Positions 4,801 through 40,350 of a stretch of DNA of 64,000 nt are shown here, one piece after another. The translations under genes were made by a program, and so were the position numbers. The notes beneath the pieces are model-generated. The model searched no databases. It saw only the letters and a program-made list of their open reading frames with translations, and had not been told where the DNA came from. Every line of letters starts with the position of its first letter. Positions within the stretch are counted from its first letter, which is position 1. Source of the DNA: a virus (lineage: Duplodnaviria > Caudoviricetes); the IMG/VR virus record IMGVR_UViG_3300031949_001696; one strand, written 5' to 3'.

Positions 4801-4871
4801 TCCTCCTGTTTCAGTTGCTCGCGCAGCTCGCGAATCTGCGCGTCGGTGATCGTGCCGGCCGTGAGCTTCAC
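4798..4871 (-). pseudogene. N-terminal half of a 'TITDxQIREL...CAEILNAR' family gene; C-half at 29446-29602
   Basis: VKLTAGTITDAQIRELREQLKQED then loses family similarity. Confidence 0.75.
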
Positions 4872-5260
4872 GTACCGCTCCTGGCGTTGAGGATCTCGGC
4901 GCAGCGCGCGCGAACCTGCTCCTTGGCGCGCGGAATCTCGGCCTCGGTCGCGCAGCCGTAACCGATATACGTGCCGTCGGGCAGGGTGATGCCCACCGAC
5001 CACACGCCTAGCTCGCCGTTGTACTCCGCGAGGATCTGCTCGTTCGTGATCAACCGCAACGCACGCGCGTTGAACAGCTCGGCGCAGTGGGCGCGAGCCT
5101 CCCGGCGATCTTCCGTGCTCCAGCCAGGCAGCGTCGCCACGGTCAGCTCGATGGCAGCGATCTCGTCCGCGTAGAACAGCTCGCGGATCTGATCGTCGGT
5201 GATCGTGGCGGCGGTGAGCTTCGCGGCATTATCTGCACGGGAAGTGATCAAGTCGCCCAT
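4868..5260 (-). CDS. 'TITDDQIREL...CAEILNAR' family protein (two units)
   Basis: KLTAATITDDQIRELF...CAELFNAR...CAEILNAR. Confidence 0.7.
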   Translation of the reverse strand: MGDLITSRADNAAKLTAATITDDQIRELFYADEIAAIELTVATLPGWSTEDRREARAHCAELFNARALRLITNEQILAEYNGELGVWSVGITLPDGTYIGYGCATEAEIPRAKEQVRARCAEILNARSGT

Positions 5261-6764: not shown

Positions 6765-7046
6765 TCAGTAGTAGGGGTCGTATTCGCGGACGATCGGAGG
6801 CTCGTAGCCGTCGAGGTAGATGACGGGTGCCAAGAAGCCGGCGCGCTCGCGCAGCCCGCGCTTCATGTCGACGAGGAACTCGTCGGTGATCGCGTAGCGA
6901 TCTTGCGGAGCGACCTTGATCACGATTTCGAGGTCGAAGCGTCCGTGGATGCGCGCGAAGTTCGCGGTCTCCTTGTCCTTGCAGCGCGTCTCGATCTGGT
7001 TCATGAGCCAATCGAGGTGCTCCTGCGAGATGTCGTTGGTTTTCAT
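6765..7046 (-). CDS. Hypothetical protein
   Basis: MKTNDISQEH..., AGGAG RBS. Confidence 0.55.
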   Translation of the reverse strand: MKTNDISQEHLDWLMNQIETRCKDKETANFARIHGRFDLEIVIKVAPQDRYAITDEFLVDMKRGLRERAGFLAPVIYLDGYEPPIVREYDPYY

Positions 7047-7626: not shown

Positions 7627-8018
7627 GAAGGATCCTTGGCGAGTTCGCGCTGGTCAGCTTCGCCCCGCGGGAGACGCACGAACGTGCAGTTTTTCCAACG
7701 CCGCTCGCGCCCGTCGAAGGCGCGGATCGTGTACTCGCTTTCGCCCTCGATCGCGATCAGTTCACCGACGCAATCGATCGGCCTGCCGCGGATGTTGGTC
7801 ACCTCCAGGACGAGCTGACCAGGCGCGATCTCGCGCATCCAGTCGAACAAGCGGCGAGCCGCGGGCGTAACGTTGTGTGACGATCTCCAGAGCTGCTCGC
7901 CGGTCGCAACGAGCATGGCGGCGAGGTTTTCGACGGCTTCACGCTTCTCGTATTCGAGTCGCTGACAGCCGTCGCAATCGGGATACGGGTCGCCTGGGAG
8001 CTGTGGATCGTCAGTCAT
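7623..8018 (-). CDS. Hypothetical protein with LPGDPxPxCxGCQRxEYEKRE module
   Basis: Module also present near 30310-30390. Confidence 0.6.
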   Translation of the reverse strand: MTDDPQLPGDPYPDCDGCQRLEYEKREAVENLAAMLVATGEQLWRSSHNVTPAARRLFDWMREIAPGQLVLEVTNIRGRPIDCVGELIAIEGESEYTIRAFDGRERRWKNCTFVRLPRGEADQRELAKDPS

Positions 8019-9004
8019 TTGGTTTCTCCCCGGACCTTGCCGCGACCCTTGCGGTAGCGGAATGGACGCCGGGTCCGGTTGGCCTCGATCAGGTCGTCGC
8101 GTTCGAGGTTCGTCAGCGCGACGATCACAGTCGTAGCCTTGACGGCAGTGCCGCGGTCGGCAGCGCTTTGCACGATGTCGCGCGTTGTCATCCACGGGAA
8201 GTCGCGCGGCATCCCCAGGATCTCAAGCACGAGCGCTGTCGTCGTTCCCGCGCGCGGCGGCGGGCGTAGTGGCCGATCCCACGACGCGCGAGGGTGCTCG
8301 TGCCAGATCTTGGGTGCCGCGTCGAGTGCGGCTTTGTGTGCGAGATTAGCGGAAGCGTAACGCCGGATGTCGCCGCTCTGCGTCCGCAGGAAGCTGCCGT
8401 CGACGTAGGCCATCCAACGCGGCAGCTCGCTCTGGGGCGCTTCGTCATAAACGACGCCCACGCCCTCACACGGAGGTCGATCTGTGTCCTCGAAGATGTT
8501 CTTGAGGTGAGGGCAGCCGCAGTACCGGTGCTCGCCCCAGATGCGCTCGCACCCGGCGTTGCACAGATCGCAGCGGATGCTCGGTGCGGACTCGGCGTCA
8601 ATCTGGGAAAGCGCGGCCATGGAGGCGGCGATCGCGTCGATGACGTTGTCGCCCGTGAGCTTCCACTCGGGCCTGTGGATCACGGTCGGATCGTAACTGC
8701 ACAGATCGAGCCCCGGAGACCACTTGCGGTGGTCGTGGCCGTAGCCGTCGTGGCCTATGAGCGTTCCGAGCCCATAGCGCGCTGCGAACCGACCGAGACC
8801 GGCGATGAACCGTGGATCGCTCTCGGAGAGGCGATCTGGGGTCGCGTCCCAGAACTCGACTAGCGGCTCCGCGCTGTCGTGCACGATACCGTGATGCCAG
8901 AAGCCGTCGTTTCTGCCGTAGGTATCTCCCTCGCGCACGATCCGAACGTTGAAGGCTCGACCAACATCGTTCACGACGCGCGTGACGATAACCGGCGCGT
9001 CCAT
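8015..9004 (-). CDS. Multidomain hypothetical protein (N-domain paralogous to 9678-10049; C-terminal winged-HTH-like)
   Basis: AFNVRIVREGDTYG...EPLVEFWDA...DPRF..GLG shared. Confidence 0.65.
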   Translation of the reverse strand: MDAPVIVTRVVNDVGRAFNVRIVREGDTYGRNDGFWHHGIVHDSAEPLVEFWDATPDRLSESDPRFIAGLGRFAARYGLGTLIGHDGYGHDHRKWSPGLDLCSYDPTVIHRPEWKLTGDNVIDAIAASMAALSQIDAESAPSIRCDLCNAGCERIWGEHRYCGCPHLKNIFEDTDRPPCEGVGVVYDEAPQSELPRWMAYVDGSFLRTQSGDIRRYASANLAHKAALDAAPKIWHEHPRASWDRPLRPPPRAGTTTALVLEILGMPRDFPWMTTRDIVQSAADRGTAVKATTVIVALTNLERDDLIEANRTRRPFRYRKGRGKVRGETK

Positions 9005-9005
9005 G

Positions 9006-9251
9006 TCAGTTGCTCTCTTCGCGGATCTGCGCGGCCTGCGCACTCTGCGAAAGCACGTAGACGACCGCGTATGCGAGGTAGCGGGGGTCGTTTTCCTGGC
9101 CGAGCTTCTCGTTGATCGCGGGCATGTTCGGCTCGATCACGCGCGTCAGGATCTGCGCCGTTGCGTCGAGATCACCGTGGATTTCGTACAGCCGCGCAGC
9201 TTCGTTGATCTGCGCTTCGGTCAGAAACTGCGGCAGGGTGAAGGTCTTCAC
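9006..9251 (-). CDS. Hypothetical protein
   Basis: ORF in operon-like array. Confidence 0.55.
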   Translation of the reverse strand: MKTFTLPQFLTEAQINEAARLYEIHGDLDATAQILTRVIEPNMPAINEKLGQENDPRYLAYAVVYVLSQSAQAAQIREESN

Positions 9252-29448: not shown

Positions 29449-29602
29449 CCACGCCAAGAAGGGACCGCGCACATGGGCAAGAGTCGCCGTGTGCAATAGC
29501 GCCCTCGCTGGCGCCAATGCGCAGTCCGCCGTCGTGCGTGAGGTACGTCAGCACTACCGCGGCCTCTGTGCCGAGATCCTCAACGCAAGGAGCCCCACGT
29601 GA
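29446..29602 (+). pseudogene. C-terminal half of a TITD/CAEILNAR family gene (N-half at 4798-4871)
   Basis: ...HYRGLCAEILNARSPT* with no own family N-terminus. Confidence 0.75.
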
Positions 29603-29859
29603 AGCTCACCGCCGACACGATCACCGACGATCAGATCCGCGAGCTGTTCACGGCCCACTGCGAGTGCCGCCCGCTCGACGTCGATCGCCCCTCGCACAGC
29701 CACGACTGCGACGACGACATCGTGGAAGACTGCCGCGTGGCACTCGGCGGCTATCCGAACGGACAGATCGGCCCACGCAGCACGATGACCGCGATCATCC
29801 AGCGCCAGGCCGCGCGCCGGATCTGCACGGAGCGGCTCAACGAGAGAGACGCCAAGTGA
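29599..29859 (+). CDS. TITDDQIREL family protein
   Basis: VKLTADTITDDQIRELF...RRICTERLNER. Confidence 0.7.
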   Translation: MKLTADTITDDQIRELFTAHCECRPLDVDRPSHSHDCDDDIVEDCRVALGGYPNGQIGPRSTMTAIIQRQAARRICTERLNERDAK

Positions 29860-31858: not shown

Positions 31859-32169
31859 AGACGCTGCCCGAGATCCTCCGCGACGCGATGCTCCTACTCG
31901 ACGACGAACGCGAGGACGTCGTAATCGCACGTGGGCAGCAGCTCGCGTCATTCGATGGGCAAGCTCTGCGGCTGCTATCCAGCAAGGCGTACCAGATACG
32001 GCTTCGGCACGACACGCGAGACGACCCGGACCAGTCTCAATACAGGTGCGAGGCCCGAACGTGGCTCGGCGCGGAGTGGTCGAGCTGGAGCGAACAGTGT
32101 GGGTGGCTCGGCGGTGCCGGTTTCGACATCCGCGACGTGCTCGCGACGGACTGGAGGATCGTCTCGTGA
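31855..32169 (+). CDS. Hypothetical protein ending FDIRDVLATDW
   Basis: Coupled ORF. Confidence 0.55.
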   Translation: MKTLPEILRDAMLLLDDEREDVVIARGQQLASFDGQALRLLSSKAYQIRLRHDTRDDPDQSQYRCEARTWLGAEWSSWSEQCGWLGGAGFDIRDVLATDWRIVS

Positions 32170-32628: not shown

Positions 32629-32784
32629 ATGATCAAGCCCGAGCCGCACCCGCACCAGCTCATCCCCGAGGAGTGCGCTGCCGACACGGCCCGCGCACAT
32701 CTGAGCCAAGCCAAGGCCACCACACTCGACGGCGACAGTTTCGACATCCGCGACGTACTCGCGACCAACTGGATCGCCTCGTGA
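32629..32784 (+). pseudogene. Chimeric ORF: N-terminus of the 33974 family fused to the C-terminus of the 31855 family
   Basis: EPHPHQLIPEECAADTARA + FDIRDVLATNW. Confidence 0.6.
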
Positions 32785-32981
32785 AGCTCACTGCCGCGAC
32801 GATCACCGACGCGCAGATCCGAGAGCTGTACGACGAGCTTCGGCAGCGTGACGAATGGATCGGGGGCGGGCTGGACTGCGAAGACGCGCTCTTCCGCTTA
32901 TCAGGACACGAACAAGCCCGTGCTCGCTGTGCCGAGATCCTCAACGCAAAGAACCATGCTTATCCGGTTAACACCCCGTGA
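32781..32981 (+). CDS. TITD/CAEILN family protein, 3' end altered by cassette insertion
   Basis: VKLTAATITDAQIRELY...ARARCAEILNAKN. Confidence 0.7.
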   Translation: MKLTAATITDAQIRELYDELRQRDEWIGGGLDCEDALFRLSGHEQARARCAEILNAKNHAYPVNTP

Positions 32982-33954
32982 GTGACCTAGATCAACATAA
33001 CGAGAACGCTTCGCTCTTGGTCGGCGACAGCCTGTCTCGGCTGCGCGAGATCCCGGACGGATCGGCTCAGTGCTGCATCACGTCGCCTCCCTACTGGGGG
33101 CTGCGAGATTACGGCGTCAATAGTCAGATCGGGCAGGAAGCCACGGCCGACGAGTACGTGGCGAACCTCGTCGGCATCACTCGCGAGATCAAGCGCGTTA
33201 TCGCGCTAGATGGATCCTTCTGGCTCAACATCGGGGACTCGTACTATGGGGGTCCACCGGACCAGCAACCGAAGGACGCCAGCCACCTGACGCGCAGGCG
33301 CACTCTCCAGACCAAGAGTTGCGAGACCTGCGGAGCCGATTTCGTTGGCAAGTCCACCCGGCGTTTCTGCACCTCGAAGTGCGCGAGCTATTCCTCTGGG
33401 CAGAAGCGCATCGGATTCGATCGACCAAAGTGCATGCTTGCGCTGCCTTGGCGAGTCCTCTCTGCACTCGTCGAGGACGGATGGGTTATCCGCAATGACG
33501 TCATCTGGTACAAGCCGAACCACCTCCCTACGATGGCGCGCGATCGACTGGCCTGCTCGTACGAGCACCTGTTCCACCTCGTCCATCCCGGGCGGTGGCG
33601 TGGGAAGACGTACGACGGATCGTACTACTACGACGCGCGGGCATTCGAGGGCCTCGATGATGTCTGGGCGATCCCGACGGTTCCCGGAGCGTCCGATCAT
33701 GCAGCGCCGTTCCCCGAGTCACTCGTCCGCCCAATTGTCGTAGGGACATGTCCTCTCGGCGGAACGATTCTCGATCCGTTCGCCGGAAGCGGTACTGCGG
33801 GCGTCGTCGCGCTCCAAGAAGGTCGCCGGTTCCTCGGTGTCGAGTTGAATCCAAACTACGCCGCGAGGGCGTGGGATCGGATGTCGAAAGCCGTGCCGAG
33901 TCTACAACTAACAAAGGCGGTCAACCTGTGAGGGGTGACAACCGGATAAGCATG
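32955..33954. mobile_element. Non-autonomous 1000-bp insertion cassette (23-bp terminal IRs, 8-bp TSD) carrying a DNA methyltransferase
   Basis: IRL CATGCTTATCCGGTTAACACCCC, IRR GGGGTGACAACCGGATAAGCATG (21/23); TSD CAAAGAAC at 32947-32954 and 33955-33962. Confidence 0.85.
32978..33931 (+). CDS. Beta-class N4-C/N6-A DNA methyltransferase with inserted CxxC...RFCxxxC zinc finger
   Basis: ITSPPYWGLRDY (motif IV), LDPFAGSGT (motif I), HAAPFP. Confidence 0.9.
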   Translation: MSDLDQHNENASLLVGDSLSRLREIPDGSAQCCITSPPYWGLRDYGVNSQIGQEATADEYVANLVGITREIKRVIALDGSFWLNIGDSYYGGPPDQQPKDASHLTRRRTLQTKSCETCGADFVGKSTRRFCTSKCASYSSGQKRIGFDRPKCMLALPWRVLSALVEDGWVIRNDVIWYKPNHLPTMARDRLACSYEHLFHLVHPGRWRGKTYDGSYYYDARAFEGLDDVWAIPTVPGASDHAAPFPESLVRPIVVGTCPLGGTILDPFAGSGTAGVVALQEGRRFLGVELNPNYAARAWDRMSKAVPSLQLTKAVNL

Positions 33955-33973
33955 CAAAGAACAAGGAACGTCC

Positions 33974-34219
33974 ATGAAGAGGAATGCCCGATCTGAACCG
34001 CATCCACACCAGCTCACCCCCGAAGAGTGTGCTGCCGACACGGCCCGCGCGCAGCTGAACCAGGCCAAGGCCGCCGCGCTCGACGCCTGGCACGCCGCGA
34101 AGCGCTGCCTGGATCACCTCGACGAGACCGCCGATCCGGCGTGGATCGCGGACGCGGAAGCTGCCGCGAAGCACGCGCGAAAGCTCTTCGATGCGCTCGT
34201 GCTGGAAACGGAGTGGTAG
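33974..34219 (+). CDS. Hypothetical protein
   Basis: EPHPHQLTPEECAADTARA family. Confidence 0.55.
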   Translation: MKRNARSEPHPHQLTPEECAADTARAQLNQAKAAALDAWHAAKRCLDHLDETADPAWIADAEAAAKHARKLFDALVLETEW

Positions 34220-38294: not shown

Positions 38295-39268
38295 GCAAGC
38301 AACAGGTCCGCGCACGTCTGCTCGACGCGCTCATCGCCAACATCATCCTACCGCCGTTGTCGACGGGCACCAACTTCATCAACGAAGAGGAAGCCTTCGC
38401 CCACAATGCCGCACTACGAGCGATTCTCGACGGCGCGACGTGCATCGAGGCGACGAACGTCGCGCGCTTCTTCGACGATAGTTACCTCGGAGATGGAGCT
38501 TCTTTCGACGCGTTCTGGACCGACCTCAAGTGCCTCGTGCCGCCGCACAAGCGCTTCTTCATCGAGTGGGAAAAGCCGCTCATCCCGCACGCCAAGCGCA
38601 TGGGCATGTTGTTCCTCGCCTGCCCGCCCGAGCTAGCGGAAGCGACCGCTCGGATGATCATCGGAGCAAACGCTCAGTCGACACCCGCGAAAATCGCAGA
38701 GTTTCGACAGAACGTCCGCTGCCGTTGGATCTACCTGACGCTGGAGTTCTTGGAGTTCGACCACAAAAACGACGACGACTACATCTCGGGCTTCCGCGGG
38801 CCCTACCACATCACCACGATGTCCGTTGCCGAAGACGGCACGCTCCTCGACTTTTGGATGAGCCGCGCGACAAGGAACTTGCCCGACGACGAAGCGATGC
38901 AGGTCGCGGGCGCGTCCCTCGTCGCGTGGACGACGCTCGCGATGATGAACTGCGCCAACATCACCACGACCGAGCACAAGACACCCGACGCGTTTCAGAA
39001 GGCACGCGTGCGAAGCGGCAAGAAACCTCTCGTCTCGTACCACACGGTGAGCGTCGACCTCGGCAAGACGCCGCGGCAGATCGCAGCTGAGAGCCTGCCC
39101 GGCGACGGATCGACGCCGCGCCGCCACAAGAAGCGCGGGCACATAAAGGACTACCGCAAGGGCCAAGGGCTGTTCGGCCGCTACAAGGGCGTCTGGTACT
39201 GGGGGCCGATACTCGCCGGATCGGAAGAAGAAGGCATCGTCGTGTCGGACTACGAGGTGACTCCATGA
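38291..39268 (+). CDS. Phage-type hypothetical protein with C-terminal RxHxxRGH motif
   Basis: PRRHKKRGHIKDY...GLFGRYKGVWYW. Confidence 0.65.
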   Translation: MSKQQVRARLLDALIANIILPPLSTGTNFINEEEAFAHNAALRAILDGATCIEATNVARFFDDSYLGDGASFDAFWTDLKCLVPPHKRFFIEWEKPLIPHAKRMGMLFLACPPELAEATARMIIGANAQSTPAKIAEFRQNVRCRWIYLTLEFLEFDHKNDDDYISGFRGPYHITTMSVAEDGTLLDFWMSRATRNLPDDEAMQVAGASLVAWTTLAMMNCANITTTEHKTPDAFQKARVRSGKKPLVSYHTVSVDLGKTPRQIAAESLPGDGSTPRRHKKRGHIKDYRKGQGLFGRYKGVWYWGPILAGSEEEGIVVSDYEVTP

Positions 39269-40350
39269 GTTACGTCAAAGATCTCATGACGGCCGCCGCC
39301 GAATGGATGAAGCTCAATCCAAGTGCGTCGGGAAAGCTCAAGGTCCCTCGCGATGAATTTGCAATCGACAATTATGATCTCGATCATTTGTTCGCGGCTT
39401 TCGAGAAGCGCTCACAGGAAGCCGCTGCAAAAGATCCTGCACGAAGTGCGGAGATACTTGCGCACCTCGACGACATGCGCGCCCAACACGAGAAGCTTTT
39501 AGCGGGACGAAAACATATTCGCGAGCATGAGGACGCGGTCGAACGCAGCATAAACGAGACCGACGCGACCGGTCATGCCAAGCTCGACATGGGAGATTGC
39601 ACAGTCGCGGCGACACCGCTCGTGCTCGGCCGCTGGTGCTTGGCCTGGGCCTACGCCGGCTACAACGTGTTCGAGCTAGGCAATGACTTCGTAGCTGCGA
39701 TGTTGCTCACCGATCCTCGCGAGATCCGTTTCGAGGATCTGCGCATCCCGTTCCCGGGTCTTCTGATCACGATCCCGAGCGGATTCACGGCCGGCAATGA
39801 AGGATTGCCCTATACAAAGATCCATCTCTCCCACGTCGACGGTGAGTGGAAACTCTACGCGACCGACGGCATTCGTGTCTTGGATACGACCGTCGGCGAA
39901 GGAGAAGCACTCAGTTGGGATCTGCTCGAAAGTCTTGAGACCGAAGACGATGAGATCACGGGCTCTGATGCCGAGGTCGTTCGGACAGTTCGACAGATCG
40001 CATTTGGGATGCTCGCATACGTCAATGCCGTCGATCGCGCCATCGAAGAGCGCGACGGAGCCAAGCGGTCAAAGAACAAGCGTACGCACGATAATGGACC
40101 TCGGCCGCGGGTCCACGACGTCGGGCGAACCGTCAAGATCGATCCGATCCTCGTCAAGTATGCACGCGCCGGCTCACGAGAAATCACATTACAGATCAAG
40201 AGCCGTTTCATCGTGCGGGGGCACTATCGGAATCAGGCCCATGGCCCCGAACATCGCGATCGCAAGCTGATCTGGATCGAGCCGTTCTGGAAAGGACCAG
40301 TGGAAGGCGCGAAGATCGTGCACACCTATCGACCGGACGTCTCCAAATGA
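39265..40350 (+). CDS. Phage-type hypothetical protein with C-terminal VRGHxRxQ...WIEPFWKGP motif
   Basis: Related C-terminal motif to preceding gene. Confidence 0.65.
   Translation: MSYVKDLMTAAAEWMKLNPSASGKLKVPRDEFAIDNYDLDHLFAAFEKRSQEAAAKDPARSAEILAHLDDMRAQHEKLLAGRKHIREHEDAVERSINETDATGHAKLDMGDCTVAATPLVLGRWCLAWAYAGYNVFELGNDFVAAMLLTDPREIRFEDLRIPFPGLLITIPSGFTAGNEGLPYTKIHLSHVDGEWKLYATDGIRVLDTTVGEGEALSWDLLESLETEDDEITGSDAEVVRTVRQIAFGMLAYVNAVDRAIEERDGAKRSKNKRTHDNGPRPRVHDVGRTVKIDPILVKYARAGSREITLQIKSRFIVRGHYRNQAHGPEHRDRKLIWIEPFWKGPVEGAKIVHTYRPDVSK

Follow-up and report, generated by a model that had tools for sequence, protein, structure and literature searches.

A probable IS1595-derived mobile insertion cassette carrying an orphan DNA methyltransferase in a soil phage genome

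The segment at positions 32955-33954 of the window, the whole stretch of 64,000 nucleotides of phage DNA that was analysed, is interpreted as a mobile insertion cassette (MIC), non-autonomous and derived from an insertion sequence (IS) of the IS1595 family, that has lost its transposase and carries an orphan methyltransferase (MTase) as its passenger. The probability of this interpretation is put at roughly 0.85. The replicon that hosts the cassette is a soil phage of about 333 kb. Judged from the nucleotide sequence, the recurrence of the inverted repeats (IRs) and of the duplication around them (TSD) goes far beyond chance, with exact copies of the IR core of 20 specified bases, CATGCTTATCCGGTTNNCAYCC, at 70 loci in IMG/VR and at 47 in bacterial MAGs.

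Anatomy of the cassette and its methyltransferase

From IR to IR the cassette measures 1000 bp, and its features are listed in Table 1. The earlier note had described two IRs matching at 21 of 23 positions, the same octamer on both sides, and a transposase-less cassette whose single ORF exactly fills the gap between the IRs; every coordinate of this description was confirmed in the sequence. The GTG at 32978 starts on the first base past IRL, and the TGA ends at 33931, the last base before IRR. The MTase is the only ORF of the cassette, and no transposase was detected in the 64-kb window by tblastn with three transposases of the family as queries. Both mismatches between the IRs lie at positions 16-17, which are the only freely variable IR positions throughout the element family, so the window IRs are intact and not decayed. 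An in-frame TAA inside IRL (32969-32971) excludes an MTase start earlier than the GTG. The closest homologue aligns from residue 1 of this start, and the same start is used in the gene calls of two other assemblies of the phage. No match to the 4-kb region came up when phage and plasmid records were searched for near-identical sequences.

Table 1. Features of the cassette and of the genes next to it (positions in the window)
Feature	Position	Strand	Details
Left TSD copy	32947-32954	.	Octamer CAAAGAAC; 8 bp
IRL, left terminal inverted repeat	32955-32977	+	CATGCTTATCCGGTTAACACCCC; 23/23 identical to the IRL of the L039 cassette
MTase ORF, sole cargo	32978-33931	+	317 aa; GTG start, TGA stop
Sub-terminal right-end segment	33902-33931	+	Encodes the last nine ORF codons and the TGA; tail QLTKAVNL
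IRR, right terminal inverted repeat	33932-33954	-	Reverse complement CATGCTTATCCGGTTGTCACCCC
Right TSD copy	33955-33962	.	CAAAGAAC
Interrupted target gene	32781-32981	+	66 aa; end ...NAKN/HAYPVNTP (stop), partly IR-encoded
Downstream 81-aa gene	33974-34219	+	AAGGA ribosome-binding site and ATG intact after insertion

The cargo is a beta-class N4/N6 DNA methyltransferase, matching PF01555 at 7.8e-35 with 121 bits (cut-off 26.7 bits). The motifs that mark the class are intact, with motif IV (SPPY) at residues 36-39 and the AdoMet motif I (DPFAGSGT) at residues 266-273, and the relatives found in the PDB include N4-cytosine MTases, CcrM and M.PvuII. SPPY as motif IV favours N4-cytosine in such enzymes. 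The protein scores below every NCBIfam equivalog cut-off, so both m4C and m6A are candidate products. No restriction gene was found near the MTase. Most likely, the enzyme modifies the phage's own DNA and would in this way protect it from host restriction.

An element family with IS1595 ends

Other elements with the same IRs, on which the earlier note had partly made its interpretation depend, were found at more than 100 loci. The core copies nearly always form inverted pairs with a flanking 8-bp direct repeat. When plus- and minus-strand core copies were paired, 55 non-redundant complete elements resulted, 101-2563 bp in length; independent insertions with a perfect TSD number 51, and the TSD is 8 bp long in every one of them. 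Among the MAG hosts of the core, soil Alphaproteobacteria predominate; Acidobacteria, Actinomycetes, Solirubrobacterales, Kofleriaceae and others are also represented. The cargos of the family comprise methyltransferases of the PF01555, D12-class, C5-like and phrog_11619 types, PAPS-reductase-like proteins, a DHH phosphoesterase and several unknowns.

The longer elements with these ends (1169-2563 bp) encode proteins of 336-350 aa that combine a PF12760 Zn ribbon with PF12762 (DDE_Tnp_IS1595), and full-length PF12762+PF12760 proteins are present in at least 13 elements bounded by the same 20-base core. On the NCBIfam model NF033547, whose curated cut-off is 75 bits, the family transposases reach 177-185 bits. 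The minimal autonomous form, consisting of IR, transposase and IR in 1169-1170 bp, is found in bacterial MAGs (L081, L083, L106). In an alignment of nine transposases D142, D226, H261 and K268 (H261-x6-K268), E289, R293 and R296 are invariant, and the element ends read CATGCTTATC, with ends of the CATGCTTATCCGGTT type. The window ends and the residues of the sister transposases fit the ISfinder criteria of the ISSod11 group, the end motif nnnGCnTATC and the transposase signature DDHK+ER4R7, the comparison being with these motifs. The group within IS1595 is thus probably ISSod11.

The IS1595 family comprises seven groups and is characterised by 8-bp TSDs and by transposases with Zn-ribbon and DDE_Tnp_IS1595 domains (PMC8101967); for the family and its groups both PMC3129680 and PMC8101967 cite Siguier, Gagnevin & Chandler 2009. 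The window cassette has the 8-bp TSD of this family and the IRs of elements whose transposases carry these two domains. It differs from an IS1595 IS in that it has no Zn-ribbon and DDE_Tnp_IS1595 transposase of its own, carries an MTase instead, and has a jumbo phage genome as its host, not a bacterial chromosome. Having no transposase, it counts as a non-autonomous derivative and is not itself an IS.

Apart from the copies in the phage itself, the MTase has its closest relative in P0003, with 61% identity over 305 residues from residue 1 onwards, and P0002 is another relative at 61%. P0003 is encoded in an autonomous sister element on a 336-kb contig (L071:7015-9032), where an IR, the P0003 gene (7064-7996), a 3-nt gap, an IS1595 transposase (8000-9010) and a second IR follow each other in this order. 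Its IRs are at 7015 and 9032, its TSD is GTTTCTTC, and it points in the opposite direction to the genes around it. The contig has nothing else in common with the window, so the MTase travels with the IS and not with the phage backbone. Other sisters that combine a passenger with a transposase are L050 (PF01555 MTase), L006 (C5-MTase-like), L046 and L013. Together with L071 these have exactly the form of the transporter IS (tIS; Siguier 2009, cited in PMC3129680), whose passenger is placed between one IR and the gene for the transposase. The window element has no transposase gene and is accordingly a tIS derivative, not a tIS. At six loci only a C-terminal transposase remnant of 30-42 aa is left beside the IR, and these loci look like deletion intermediates. 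No IRs of this family were found around the more distant MTase relatives L149, L154 and L160 from metagenomes (47-62% local identity), nor around L162 and L163 (~50% identity).

Three further observations concern the variety of the family. MITE-size derivatives of 101-235 bp with the same IS1595 ends and 8-bp duplications are found in bacterial MAGs (L080:2567-2667, L092:480-613, L109:3117-3288, L105:6768-6959 and L122:7461-7695), their hosts being Burkholderiales, Nitrotoga, Accumulibacter and Gallionellaceae. At L066:3546-4580 two left IRs (3546 and 3989) are combined with a single right IR (4580), and the octamer GAAAGAAC precedes both left IRs; two cassettes, of 592 and 1035 bp, are thus nested or in tandem here. 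A cassette of 1010-1013 bp with a DHH phosphoesterase (phrog_4771, 310 aa) is present at L037, L038, L051 and L065, in all four with the duplication GACCAAAT. These four loci are from different samples and probably represent one phage lineage sampled repeatedly.

Insertion site and expression

The insertion point lies four codons before the natural stop of the target gene. This gene belongs to a family of multi-copy small genes with the signature VKLTAxTITDxQIR...ARCAEILNA[KR]xxx (stop), and the same 66-aa gene is called in two other assemblies of the phage, which carry the same insertion. When 32955-33962 is removed, the reading frame is restored to ...CAEILNAKNKERP (stop), the stop and the start of the next gene overlapping in ATGA, and the reconstructed empty junction joins ...CTCAACGCAAAGAAC directly to AAGGAACGTCC.... 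This bears out the earlier proposal that excision gives back ...EILNAKNKERP (stop) coupled to the next ATG. Intact paralogues in the window (~29.5 kb and ~4.9 kb) and in L072 end in ...CAEILNARSPT, ...ARSGT and ...ARSAK, each followed by a stop and each with GTGA onto the next gene, and the reconstructed site has the same stop/start-overlap architecture. Copies of this small-gene family occur on both strands of the window (29553-29640, 4840-4950 on the minus strand, and the interrupted copy) and on related phage contigs (L072:2967-3529).

The related contigs L072-L075 have many genes in common with the window, at 55-85% amino-acid identity. Their homologues of the 81-aa gene have a 4-bp overlap with the upstream gene and no cassette between them. 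An orthologous empty site, which the earlier note had suggested looking for in relatives, was not found in these contigs, where the cassette is absent but another gene occupies the upstream position. A degenerate junction pattern gave no match in the viral contigs, and no relatives were found there with the MTase or the 199-aa downstream neighbour as query. The paralogues and the cassette-free relatives indirectly support the pre-insertion site as reconstructed from the sequence.

Pooled over both orientations, the 51 insertion sites have a weak palindromic preference, T-n-GWWCGWWC-n-A, and the window site, CAAAGAAC followed by aA, matches the right half of this consensus. Purine-rich sites resembling ribosome-binding sites (GGAGTAAC, GAAGGAAG, AAGGAAC) are frequent among the 51 targets, and may be part of the reason for cassettes landing at gene boundaries. 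A crude longest-frame heuristic for the orientation of the flanks assigned those of the window element wrongly, the DNA being high in G+C, and no family-wide conclusion is drawn from it.

The junction at the 5' end of the MTase can be read directly from the sequence. The TGA of the target gene overlaps the GTG of the MTase (GTGA), the target gene reading through IRL as HAYPVNTP before it stops. The other two frames close within 8 nt of the MTase start, one at the TAA of IRL and the other at a second TGA, within GTGAGTGA. The cassette is co-directional with the surrounding operon, and no promoter-like site or plus-strand terminator-like site was found in it. With no promoter-like site, no Shine-Dalgarno sequence and the GTGA overlap, read-through and reinitiation are the most likely route; the MTase is thus probably transcribed by read-through and translated by termination-reinitiation. 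The GTGA overlap also suggests translational coupling of the MTase to the truncated target gene.

Two other features of the window were noted. A second paralogous pair is formed by 32629-32784 and 33974-34219 (M..EPHPHQL.PEECAADTARA.L.QAKA...), which are 86% identical over 91 nt. In the upstream copy of the pair the C-terminus is different and shorter (...DIRDVLATNWIAS); it is met again in the last residues of an ORF ending at 32169, and this suggests a mosaic shuffling of small-gene modules. For the 361-aa gene at 39265-40350, the gene table of another assembly of the phage lists a precomputed Pfam match, PF26125 (AcrVA2-like), and the gene may be of the anti-CRISPR type.

Mobility, cargo exchange and significance

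In the proposed mechanism, an IS1595 transposase supplied in trans would cut the cassette at its IRs and paste it into the phage genome. The transposase could come from an autonomous copy in the host chromosome, from elsewhere in the phage or from a co-infecting phage. Since the window element has no transposase, it would be movable only in trans. The cassette retains the 23-bp IRs of the family and about 30 nt of sub-terminal right-end sequence, its TSD and IRs are intact, and many sister cassettes are found at different sites. No second copy of the exact MTase cassette was found elsewhere in the data searched, and a single unit is known.

The presence of the same insertion in the other two assemblies may mean that the cassette is fixed and no longer moving. 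It is conceivable, at somewhat below even odds, that the cassette came by IS1595 transposition and is now an immobile, domesticated phage gene, with no cognate transposase for the phage or its host and with IRs that persist through recency or a role in expression. The sharing of the insertion by three assemblies of the phage, the absence of a transposase from the 64-kb window and a cassette G+C (0.612) close to that of the window (0.630) are in line with such a relic. A relic would be harder to reconcile with the perfect TSD and with IRs that differ only at the variable dinucleotide, and hence are without decay, and soil bacteria and phages commonly harbour autonomous elements with these ends. 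The question here is one of present activity, and either answer is compatible with the origin of the cassette from IS1595.

The ends of the ORF bear on how the MTase came to lie between these IRs. The earlier note had regarded the ORF as precisely trimmed and its zero-spacer fit as unusual. At the 5' end this view holds, as most cassettes of the family have 10-25 nt with AGGAG between the IR and the ATG, whereas the window cassette has zero spacer, a GTG start and no Shine-Dalgarno sequence. At the 3' end it does not hold. The window cassette and the L039 cassette agree in every base of their last 53 nt, a stretch that in the window takes in the final 30 nt of the ORF. The cargo of L039, with 204 aa (phrog_12600), is unrelated to the window MTase, and both ORFs end in the same tail, QLTKAVNL (stop). 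Homology to the L071 MTase ends at 33892. Given this end of homology and the 53-nt identity, the final nine codons of the ORF, together with its stop, are part of the end of the element and not of the MTase. In the family, the stops of cargos and transposases commonly abut the IR or fall inside it, with offsets mostly of -18 to +9 nt in the cargo cassettes examined. The exact fit is therefore partly built into the element, and only the 5' zero spacer is really unusual. The possibility that the tail QLTKAVNL is the remnant of a transposase C-terminus was rejected, as the family transposases end in ...ELY(D/S)GDWxHP....

The shared ends also allow for an exchange of cargo, in which recombination placed the MTase into a pre-existing cassette, empty or differently loaded, instead of a simple deletion of the transposase, and the ends supplied the start context, the C-terminal tail and the stop. 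Identical IRLs and right ends around unrelated cargos, and a common tail unlike the C-termini of transposases, are what such an exchange would leave. This course of events is nevertheless considered unlikely, for the L039 cassette is the only other element in the viral collection with the extended 53-nt right end, two sister passenger-carrying IS could each have lost their transposase independently, in-frame entry into the shared segment has a chance of about 1 in 3, and no recombination site or enzyme is evident. More doubtful still is a broader proposal that the IS1595 (ISSod11-like) ends form an expression-ready modular chassis, whose cargos are swapped as in an integron-like shuttle among soil phages and their hosts and are not independent deletion derivatives. 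Under it the left end would give the start context, usually AGGAG with a spacer, while in the window the stop/start overlap would couple the cargo to whichever gene was hit; the right end would give a short tail and a stop, and the cargos would mostly be DNA-modification genes along with other counter-defence genes.

The derivation from IS4/IS231 favoured by the earlier note, with CAT-ended IRs recognised by an IS4-family transposase, is highly improbable: the ends do begin with CAT, and IRs around a passenger gene without a transposase recall the MIC231-type architecture (concept: PMC3129680), but all autonomous elements found with these ends encode IS1595-family transposases (PF12762+PF12760; NF033547) and none an IS4/DDE_Tnp_1-type enzyme, and the 8-bp TSD of all 51 insertions is a hallmark of IS1595 (PMC8101967).

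The preferred interpretation, an IS1595-derived MIC, places the cassette in a class that has been described before. Transporter IS with passenger genes are on record, as are MICs and MITEs that lack a transposase (PMC3129680). The window cassette has the make-up of a MIC, with IS-type IRs and a TSD around a passenger gene and no transposase. MIC231 of Bacillus cereus, from the IS231/IS4 family (De Palmenaer et al. 2004, cited in PMC3129680), follows the same scheme, with IS ends around one or more passenger genes, no transposase, and mobilisation in trans by the cognate IS. The window cassette differs from it in belonging to IS1595 and not IS4, in its phage replicon and in its DNA MTase cargo, and here mobilisation in trans is inferred from sequence. 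Within the library searched, there was no paper linking IS1595 with jumbo phages and none on IS1595-derived MICs in phages. The class being already known in principle from MICs and transporter IS, the value of this case is cumulative rather than surprising. What it adds is an autonomous sister element, a 3' end encoded by the chassis and an unusual coupled 5' junction.

Phages need DNA-modification genes against host restriction, and the route by which these are acquired is only partly understood. The elements described here illustrate one such route, in which a bacterial IS carries MTases as passengers, the transposase is lost, and cassettes of 0.3-1 kb persist in phage genomes. Located at the ends of genes, the cassettes can be expressed by read-through without cost. 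The family is widespread among viral and bacterial loci, and methyltransferases of three classes are abundant among its cargos, as are PAPS-reductase-like genes. In terms of annotation, the cassette accounts for an apparently 'orphan' MTase and for a small gene with an odd C-terminus.
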